DNA of 64,000 nt, from the NCBI RefSeq assembly GCF_055900595.2, contig NZ_CM148325.1; one strand, given 5' to 3'. The position numbers were made by a program. Positions 55,101 to 58,100 of this stretch are shown one piece after another. Within the stretch, counting starts at the first letter, position 1; every line of letters begins with the position of its first letter.

Positions 55101-58100
55101 ACAAAATATTGTTGATAAGACATGGTTAGGTGGTGAGCTGCCTCGGAAAATATGACGACAGTAATGATTTCTAAGAGATTTGAAATGCGTTGATAACAAA
55201 ATCTGAAATATAGGAGTCTGTTTAGGATTGTGTGTAAATGCCTTTTCTCAAAAGTAACCGTCCAGGCGGTCACTGAATCCGATAATAAAGCGGCTTATTG
55301 CCATACCCCAGTCCTTCAACGGCATCGTCCATTTCGGGGACGATGCCTGTATTGCCAGACACACCACTTTTTTCACCGGCTCGTCTGTCGGAAACACTTA
55401 CGCTTTTTGATCGCATGGCGGATCACGCTGTTTAGCGACCCGATGGCATTCGTCAGCGACAGCGACGACTCTTACCGCTGGAACGAAGTGGATAAGCGCT
55501 TCAGTGTCGACGACACGCCGAACGAGCCGAACCGCTTCGGCTGGGTGGGGGAAATCGATCCATATGGTTATTTTTCAGAAAATAATGAGAACATCTGTGC
55601 TTTATATAACCAGATAAAACCACGCAATAAGCATAAATATTACAGGTGATAATACTTTTATTTATCACTTCGGTTATATTCAATAAACATAATAACTTTC
55701 TCTTAAATCACAGGTCCAGCCATTGCAGTTGTTATCAGACGTAGATTAGGATGCCAGTGCATTTACATGGGATGGTTTGTGTATCCACCGGGTATAATGC
55801 GTGATATCATTAATTTCAACACTAACTGTGCGATTGTCTTTCATGCCTGCCCTCCGGGCAGGCTTTTTTCTGCATGCAGAAAAAAATCACCGGAAAAAAC
55901 GGCAGCAGATAAAAAAGAGTGCTGACAGGGATATTATTTCATCCGCTCACTAGCGAGATGATAAACGTTGCTACGTTCACGTTTACCTACTGCGACTACC
56001 GCAATAATTAACATATCATCAATAACCTGATAAACAAGACGAATGAATCGCCACAGGTTTAATAGACACCTCAGAGTCATTTAAGATGACTTAAAGAGAG
56101 GTGCCCATGAGCGGTAAGCGTTATCCCGAAGAGTTTAAAATTGAAGCAGTCAAACAGGTTGTTGATCGCGGTTATTCTGTTGCCAGCGTTGCAACACGTC
56201 TCGATATCACCACCCACAGCCTTTACTCCTGGATAAAGAAGTACGGTCCGGATTCTTCCACTAATAAAGAACAGTCAGATGCTCAGGCCGAGATCCGCCG
56301 TCTCCAGAAAGAGCTGAAGCGGGTTACCGACGAACGGGACATATTAAAAAAAGCCGTTGTAGATTCAATTGGTCAACGCAACAGTTATGTGAAAACATGG
56401 GGTTGCAGAGGTTTTTTGAATGAGACGAACATTTACAGCAGAGGAAAAAGCCTCTGTTTTTGAACTATGGAAGAACGGAACAGGCTTCAGTGAAATAGCG
56501 AATATCCTGGGTTCAAAACCCGGAACGATCTTCACTATGTTAAGGGATACTGGCGGCATAAAACCCCATGAGCGTAAGCGGGCTGTAGCTCACCTGACAC
56601 TGTCTGAGCGCGAGGAGATACGAGCTGGTTTGTCAGCCAAAATGAGCATTCGTGCGATAGCTACTGCGCTGAATCGCAGTCCTTCGACGATCTCACGTGA
56701 AGTTCAGCGTAATCGGGGCAGACGCTATTACAAAGCTGTTGATGCTAATAACCGAGCCAACAGAATGGCGAAAAGGCCAAAACCGTGCTTACTGGATCAA
56801 AATTTACCATTGCGAAAGCTTGTTCTGGAAAAGCTGGAGATGAAATGGTCTCCAGAGCAAATATCAGGATGGTTAAGGCGAACAAAACCACGTCAAAAAA
56901 CGCTGCGAATATCACCTGAGACAATTTATAAAACGCTGTACTTTCGTAGCCGTGAAGCGCTACACCACCTGAATATACAGCATCTGCGACGGTCGCATAG
57001 CCTTCGCCATGGCAGGCGTCATATCCGCAAAGGCGAAAGAGGTACGATTAACATAGTGAACGGAACACCAATTCACGAACGTTCCCGAAATATCGATAAC
57101 AGACGCTCTCTGGGGCATTGGGAGGGCGATTTAGTCTTAGGTACAAAAAACTCTCATATAGCCACACTTGTAGACCGAAAATCACGTTATACGATCATCC
57201 TTAGACTCAGGGGCAAAGATTCTGTCTCAGTAAATCAGGCTCTTACCGACAAATTCCTGAGTTTACCGTCAGAACTCAGAAAATCACTGACATGGGACAG
57301 AGGAATGGAACTGGCCAGACATCTAGAATTTACTGTCAGCACCGGCGTTAAAGTTTACTTCTGCGATCCTCAGAGTCCTTGGCAGCGGGGAACAAATGAG
57401 AATACAAATGGGCTAATTCGGCAGTACTTTCCTAAAAAGACATGTCTTGCCCAATATACTCAACATGAACTAGATCTGGTTGCTGCTCAGCTAAACAACA
57501 GACCGAGAAAGACACTGAAGTTCAAAACACCGAAAGAGATAATTGAAAGGGGTGTTGCATTGACAGATTGAATCTACAACAGCGTATTTTGCACAGGAGT
57601 CGCTGAAAAATACGCGTTAATCGAACAATGGCGACAACAATTTCCCATTGAAGCGATGTGTCAGGTATTTGGTGTATCCAGGAGCGGTTATTACAACTGG
57701 GTACAGCATGACCCCTCAGACAGAAAACAAAGTGATGAGCGGCTAAAACTGGAGATTAAGGTGGCACATATCAGCACTCGCGAAACATATGGAACCCGCG
57801 GCTCCAGACGGAGCTGGCAGAGAATGGCATCATCGTTGGTCGTGACCGACTGGCACGTCTTCGTAAGGAGCTAAGGCTACGCTGTTAGCAGAAACGCAAG
57901 TTCAGAGCGACTACGAACTCGAGCCACAATCTGCCAGTTGCGCCAAATCTGCTGAACCAGACGTTCGCTCCTACAGTACCAAATCAGGTCTGGGTGGCGG
58001 ACCTGACGTATGTTGCCACACAGGAGGGATGGTTGTACCTCGCTGGCATCAAAGATGTTTATACGTGCGAAATTGTCGGCTACGCCATGGGAGAGCGCAT

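Follow-up and report, generated by a model that had tools for sequence, protein, structure and literature searches.

A short open frame beside an IS1414 stub: most likely a non-functional relic of a PhoX-type alkaline phosphatase gene in a mobile autotransporter module

Between an autotransporter gene and nested insertion elements, the window (the whole stretch of 64,000 nucleotides from contig NZ_CM148325.1 that was analysed) contains a short open frame that an earlier note had placed at 55457-55649 and described as the C-terminal 60-odd residues of a gene destroyed by IS activity. Which gene did this frame come from, how did it come to lie here, and does it still have a function? We conclude, with a probability of about 0.93, that the feature is a non-functional relic: a 112-bp internal fragment of a PhoX-type alkaline phosphatase gene of the Cronobacter/Enterobacteriaceae type, fused on one side to an IS1414 stub and on the other to unrelated AT-rich DNA. 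Its most likely function is none. The features on which this reading is based are collected in Table 1.

Table 1. Features in and around the chimeric frame, in window coordinates
Feature	Coordinates	Strand	Description and evidence
aatA-type autotransporter adhesin gene	50238..55073	+	heads the conserved module; ORFs, NCBIfam autotransporter barrel model
IS1414 terminal stub (IS256 family)	55215..55454	-	240 bp; outer inverted repeat and frameshifted transposase 3' end; BLAST, Pfam, PGAP
Fortuitous chimeric ORF	55230..55649	+	139 aa (68 aa from ATG 55443); antisense IS1414 stub, PhoX fragment, 27 read-through codons
PhoX (DUF839) alkaline phosphatase pseudogene fragment	55453..55564	+	codons 288-325 of 659; blastn, BLASTP, tblastn, PGAP
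AT-rich non-coding spacer	55565..55933	.	369 bp; present wherever the fragment is; without annotated features in the RefSeq genomes examined
Intrinsic-terminator-like hairpin	55845..55872	+	GCCTGCCC-TCC-GGGCAGGC, then T6; terminator scan
relE toxin gene, C-terminal 35 codons	55934..56041	-	PGAP pseudogene; Pfam ParE_toxin positions 66-87 of 89
IS3-family element, split by IS30	56044..58486	+	NCBIfam IS3/IS30 models; PGAP of the identical 6EVA region

The open frame and its parent gene

The frame as such is real: it lies on the + strand and ends with the TGA at 55647-55649. Its left end had been misplaced, though, since position 55457 is out of frame (translation from there gives six stops) and the in-frame codons begin at 55452, 55455 and 55458. 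Nor does the frame begin at the IS junction without a start codon, as had been supposed. It is open back to a GTG at 55230, and an ATG at 55443 is also in-frame; the corresponding products measure 139 aa (ORF listing) and 68 aa, respectively. Both of these start codons lie within the IS1414 stub, in antisense orientation. The + strand translation from 55422 up to the stop reads ITLFSDPMAFVSDSDDSYRWNEVDKRFSVDDTPNEPNRFGWVGEIDPYGYFSENNENICALYNQIKPRNKHKYYR, and the product of the chimeric frame is MAFVSDSDDSYRWNEVDKRFSVDDTPNEPNRFGWVGEIDPYGYFSENNENICALYNQIKPRNKHKYYR, with the C-terminus ...GEIDPYGYFSENNENICALYNQIKPRNKHKYYR. Only 112 bp of the frame, at about 62% GC, are derived from a gene. The last 27 sense codons are unrelated to PhoX and lie in AT-rich DNA of 24-31% GC. 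An open run of 27 codons arose in 12% of the shuffles of this tail DNA: the tail is no longer than chance gives and is driven by composition. The earlier note had counted the lack of both a family match and a coding signature as evidence against its reading; such a lack characterizes the tail and not the first 112 bp.

The parent family is PhoX. The intact parent was located by blastn of complete E. coli genomes; protein searches by word index, whether with the 75-aa frame or with a composite of 89 aa, returned only fragments of at most 155 aa and no full-length parent. By blastn, the fragment is identical at 106 of 112 positions (94.6%; E = 1e-46) to the intact PhoX gene of pRM14721, and at 104 of 112 (92.9%) to the PhoX gene on the chromosome of APEC BEN2908. 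In both, the parent-type gene is 1,980 bp long and encodes 659 aa, and the window matches nucleotides 863-974, in frame. BLASTP of the frame against the pRM14721 protein gave 34 identical residues out of 38 (E = 8e-23), while the 27 tail residues align with nothing. Conversely, the whole PhoX protein found the fragment by tblastn with E = 6.7e-17 and no other PhoX piece in the 64-kb window. The neighbouring phytase-like gene of the PhoX locus has left no remnant in the window either. In the complete E. coli genomes, blastn brought up hundreds of copies of the scrap itself and, at 93-95% identity, intact genes annotated as 'PhoX family protein', to which those of pRM14721 and BEN2908 belong; the 90%-identity cluster of the intact protein consists mostly of sequences from Cronobacter species. 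Thus, the suggestion that an intact copy exists elsewhere held: the 659-aa PhoX occurs in some E. coli plasmids and chromosomes and in Cronobacter.

The 38 residues of the fragment, VSDSDDSYRWNEVDKRFSVDDTPNEPNRFGWVGEIDPY, align without gaps to residues 288-325 of PhoX proteins (PF05787/DUF839; WP_106668530.1 of pRM14721 and WP_000533458.1 of BEN2908). The NEPNRFGWV.EIDP motif is present in this alignment, in which 34-35 of the 38 residues are identical (35 in the Cronobacter alleles); the conserved V320 is replaced by G in the fragment. Against the Pfam profile PF05787, the fragment reaches 17.3-17.7 bits (E = 0.002) at profile positions 201-224 of 515, which is below the 24-bit gathering threshold and far from covering the domain of roughly 515 positions; NCBIfam gave nothing for the open frame. 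The intact homologue scores 560 bits over profile positions 2-515 and matches the solved P. fluorescens PhoX (3ZWU) with E = 1.9e-168; judged from these matches, it is a true PhoX. A TAT_signal match, weak at 17.9 bits, was obtained for the intact homologue only. The ORF, whose upstream part is IS1414 antisense, has no N-terminal Tat signal.

PhoX, a Tat-secreted enzyme, is a complete beta-propeller with an Fe/Ca active site, as established for P. fluorescens (PDB 3ZWU, 4A9V). Compared with this, the fragment comprises only residues 288-325 of 659, some 6% of the whole. It lacks 287 residues on the N-terminal side and 334 on the C-terminal side, and with them the N- and C-terminal parts of the propeller; about 94% of the fold is missing, in addition to the Tat signal. 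A 38-residue slice of a beta-propeller cannot fold as PhoX, and by its alignment the fragment is to be classed as a pseudogene piece and not as a PhoX family member in the functional sense. The earlier view of a destroyed-gene remnant therefore stands, but the remnant amounts to some 38 residues from the interior of the protein instead of 60-odd from its C-terminus.

Two contigs from public 'E. coli' assemblies were considered as extensions of the fragment and rejected. The first (JBQXXO010004392.1, 467 bp) contains a 41-bp inverted duplication, and its PhoX order is scrambled. In the second (JAOVLZ010000278.1, 481 bp), a high-GC foreign PhoX is joined to the remnant at a shared 40-nt motif that codes for NEPNRFGW. 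Both are likely assembly chimeras and not intermediates. The protein entries from these contigs, named 'alkaline phosphatase PhoX' and 'DUF839 domain-containing protein, partial', are probably artefacts.

Junctions and neighbourhood

The IS256-family fragment that had been noticed on the left was confirmed and can be assigned to IS1414. It shares 90.9% identity with the terminal 241 bp of an intact copy on pRHB06-C11_2 and reaches the end of the element with its terminal inverted repeat. On the minus strand, it matches Transposase_mut positions 335-376 of 379 (Pfam, E = 8.7e-4), corresponding to a frameshifted transposase C-terminus; PGAP labels it 'frameshifted; incomplete; missing N-terminus'. 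Relative to IS1414, the stub lacks about 1.1 kb, including the astA-bearing part and the other end. Whereas an IS256-family element has a Transposase_mut gene between two inverted repeats, only one repeat and a broken frame are present here. Because its reading frame is broken, the stub cannot transpose, and from this anatomy we class it as a family-derived fragment and not as an element. IS1414 carries astA/EAST1 inside its transposase gene. An intact copy with the embedded astA (EAST1 enterotoxin) gene lies directly 3' of a different autotransporter gene on pRHB06-C11_2, a plasmid of the IncFIA/FIC type (positions 2509-3717 of the extracted locus L011), which shows that the adjacency of IS1414 and autotransporter genes recurs in unrelated contexts.

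The left junction, 55452/55453, is located inside the IS1414 transposase gene, about 240 bp from the end of the IS. The only overlap between the two parental sequences, IS1414 and PhoX, is the dinucleotide TC (55453-55454); an imperfect GGCAT match lies nearby. Since the break is internal to IS1414 and is accompanied by a 2-bp microhomology, we read it as a scar of deletion or illegitimate recombination and not as a simple IS insertion site. On the right, the GC content drops from 62% (55450-55549) to 31% and then to 24% directly afterwards, the drop being near 55565. The parent reads ...GATCCATA followed by CGATCCGCATTCAG (IDPYDPHS...) at the right junction, 55564/55565, while the window reads ...GATCCATA followed by TGGTTATTTTTCAG; after codon 325, the parent protein continues with 'DPHSVPRKHTALGR...', where the window has AT-rich DNA. 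Hence, the proposed course of events is that the left end of the PhoX piece would have been fused into an IS1414 copy by a deletion at the 2-bp microhomology and its right end onto unrelated AT-rich intergenic DNA. Both junctions are identical in all three copies that were aligned (window, BL21 and pLR-28_1), and this identity suggests that each was probably formed once.

These junctions also bear on the idea that the frame is the 3' end of an unknown gene, its C-terminal 60-odd residues cut off by an IS256-type insertion. The frame does abut an IS256-family fragment and end in a stop codon, and a terminator follows further 3': the orphan terminator reported about 200 bp past the end of the frame was recovered as a strong + strand hairpin with a T-run that starts at 55845, 196 bp on. 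But no homology extends past codon 325 of the parent's 659, the break falls within IS1414 instead of at the end of an element, and the DNA that sets the hairpin apart from the stop codon is non-coding and bears indels. These findings refute the explanation; it is the least probable of all those considered here, and we give it next to no credence.

The frame had further been described as stranded between IS fragments. This does not apply to its right side, where the 369 bp of non-coding DNA and a relE fragment precede the next IS. The relE remnant agrees at every position with the last 35 residues of the 95-aa RelE that pLR-28_1 encodes in full. The left end of an IS3-family element (TGAATCGCCACAGG... 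at 56044) truncates it at 56043/56044, and the homology to pLR-28_1 ends at 56043; the relE-yefM pair is intact on pLR-28_1, whereas yefM is gone in the window. The IS3 element, with an orfA fragment at 56107-56352 and the IS30 transposase at 56420-57571, is the right-hand IS boundary of the scrap region.

On the far left, the autotransporter gene is split into 50238-52316 and 53607-55073 by an IS4-family insertion of the IS10 type (52279-53607, 1,329 bp; NCBIfam IS4 transposase). The insertion is flanked by a perfect 9-bp direct repeat, TGCTCGGCA (window 52270-53616, spacing 1338 bp), and this target duplication makes the interruption look like a recent knock-out of the adhesin. An intact autotransporter gene of 3,498 bp is present in 6EVA, BL21 and many plasmids. 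Dai et al. (2010; PMC2944236) give the length of aatA of APEC and BL21 and an IS30-bearing 3' flank, and the autotransporter of the window matches in both respects: it is the same 3,498-bp gene with IS30 and an IS3-family element in the 3' flank, as in BL21 and REL606. As in those mosaics, the module is found on chromosomes and plasmids alike; the aatA of the window differs in being knocked out by the IS10-type insertion as well. A term search of PMC2944236 found no mention of 'phosphatase'.

Coding and non-coding roles

We next consider whether the chimeric ORF of 68 or 139 aa could be a real, new-born gene for a small protein that uses the PhoX-derived peptide. It is open in most copies, and several pipelines call it, as a 68-aa 'alkaline phosphatase', as a 'DUF839 domain-containing protein' or as a 139-aa hypothetical protein; the UniProt entry 'alkaline phosphatase' is the 68-aa product MAFVSDSDD.... 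The exact ORF products each occur on at least 1000 contigs, and hundreds of genomes share the undisrupted ORF and its junctions; so wide an occurrence would equally fit a young small gene under selection. PGAP did not call it as a gene. Against such a gene, the + strand shows no promoter-like site from 55108 up to the ORF, and by eye no Shine-Dalgarno-like sequence could be seen ahead of GTG 55230 or ATG 55443. The upstream third of the ORF reads a transposase stub in antisense, the tail stays within chance and, as argued above, the propeller slice is unable to fold as PhoX.

The substitution pattern points in the same direction. With the two junction codons excluded, the fragment differs from the pRM14721 allele by three synonymous and three non-synonymous changes. 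One of the latter is V320G in the GWVVEIDP motif, at which V is kept in all eight intact alleles examined. The differences among the three remnant copies are all non-synonymous (3/3), too few substitutions for a formal test, and since the PhoX part diverges by only 0-2%, this comparison has little power to prove neutrality. The stop does not keep its position among copies, lying two codons away in the BL21 variant, and a frameshift in the G-run affects some of the database copies. We therefore regard a new-born gene as very improbable. Its more elaborate form, in which the conserved frame MAFVSDSDDSYRWNEVDKRFSVDDTPNEPNRFGWVGEIDPYGYFSENNENICALYNQIKPRNKHKYYR would be translated as a de novo small protein assembled from an IS stub, a phosphatase scrap and intergenic DNA and carried along with the aatA module, seems to us a shade less probable still.

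One copy of the chimeric ORF, protein P0005 from Logan assemblies (48 contigs), differs almost exclusively by R>C, P>L, S>F and A>V replacements. This C-to-T pattern suggests damaged or chemically converted DNA in the source library and not real divergence.

The fragment might alternatively have been kept for a role as nucleic acid, for instance by forming part of a UTR or a regulatory RNA, or by serving as antisense target for the mRNA of an intact phoX in strains with both. The module is strongly conserved, the fragment holds a 7-bp hairpin (AGCCGAA-CCGC-TTCGGCT), and a minus-strand promoter-like site (55718-55689) points into it. However, the predicted folding of the fragment RNA was no better than that of shuffles on either strand (z = -0.84 and 0.0), and Rfam gave only a chance miRNA match for fragment and spacer. 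Furthermore, the fragment is no more conserved than the flanking junk, and the data do not suggest that remnant and intact phoX occur together, the median being one place per genome. Such a role is about as improbable as a new-born gene.

The spacer of the window and that of BL21 and the plasmids are 92-93% identical, with single-base indels and the loss of an ATG. The stem of the terminator-like hairpin is kept in the BL21 and plasmid variant, with one change of G-C to G-T. A stretch of 74 bp (55572-55645) shares about 80% identity with the DNA that immediately precedes a minus-strand serine acetyltransferase gene on p6156-2 (an IncFII plasmid; positions 3001-3074 of the extracted locus L010), and this similarity suggests that the spacer may be what is left of the region upstream of a minus-strand gene that has since been lost. 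On the + strand, a perfect TATAAT (55793-55798) with a poor -35 precedes the hairpin and its T6 by about 47 nt; the pair could yield an RNA of some 70 nt, in a region that carries no annotated feature in the RefSeq records listed. Both are kept in the 92%-identical BL21/plasmid variant, and Rfam gave no match. A minus-strand ORF of 32 aa (55746-55844), whose ATG is preceded by a GGAGG, was rejected as a candidate small gene, since both the ATG and the frame are lost in the BL21/plasmid variant.

To return to the relic, its long open frame is an accident. The PhoX codons have simply stayed in frame, the antisense strand of the IS1414 stub is by coincidence open upstream, and the AT-rich DNA downstream is by chance free of stops for 27 codons.

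Distribution of the module and its meaning

Of the 5426 complete E. coli genomes searched by blastn, 490 carry the 112-bp fragment, which occupies 355 places on chromosomes and 185 on plasmids; 358 genomes contain the 1021-bp mosaic at a coverage of at least 80%. In PLSDB, the fragment is present on 199 plasmids, mostly from Escherichia, with a few from Salmonella, Shigella and Klebsiella. The scrap is always part of one module, which runs from the aatA autotransporter through the IS1414 stub, the PhoX scrap and about 370 bp of AT-rich DNA to relE(-yefM). In 6EVA, it is 100% identical over 1,021 bp. It lies beside setC/yicL/nlpA in BL21, where the equivalent of 55443-55649 is at about 52.2 kb of NC_012947, and beside dsdA/emrYK in LHM10-1, and it is also found on IncF-type plasmids. 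We infer that the scar persists by hitch-hiking in this module, which in E. coli and its relatives shuttles between chromosomal islands and plasmids of the IncF type.

As a type of feature, none of this is new. The fragment is already annotated as a pseudogene: for the 6EVA equivalent of window positions 55452-55565, PGAP gives 'alkaline phosphatase; incomplete; partial in the middle of a contig; missing N-terminus and C-terminus', and it also annotates the IS stub and the relE fragment as pseudogenes. Our additions are the anatomy, the junctions and the Cronobacter-type parent.

Because the feature is a scar, its biological weight is small. Its recognition corrects a misleading label, as the 68-aa 'alkaline phosphatase' or 'DUF839 domain-containing protein' is a 38-residue pseudogene scrap with a fortuitous tail. 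The two junctions offer a single-origin marker for following the spread of the aatA-relBE module across plasmids and chromosomal islands, including those of BL21 and the REL606-type B strains, which carry it. The scrap also shows that a Cronobacter-type phoX once adjoined this module.
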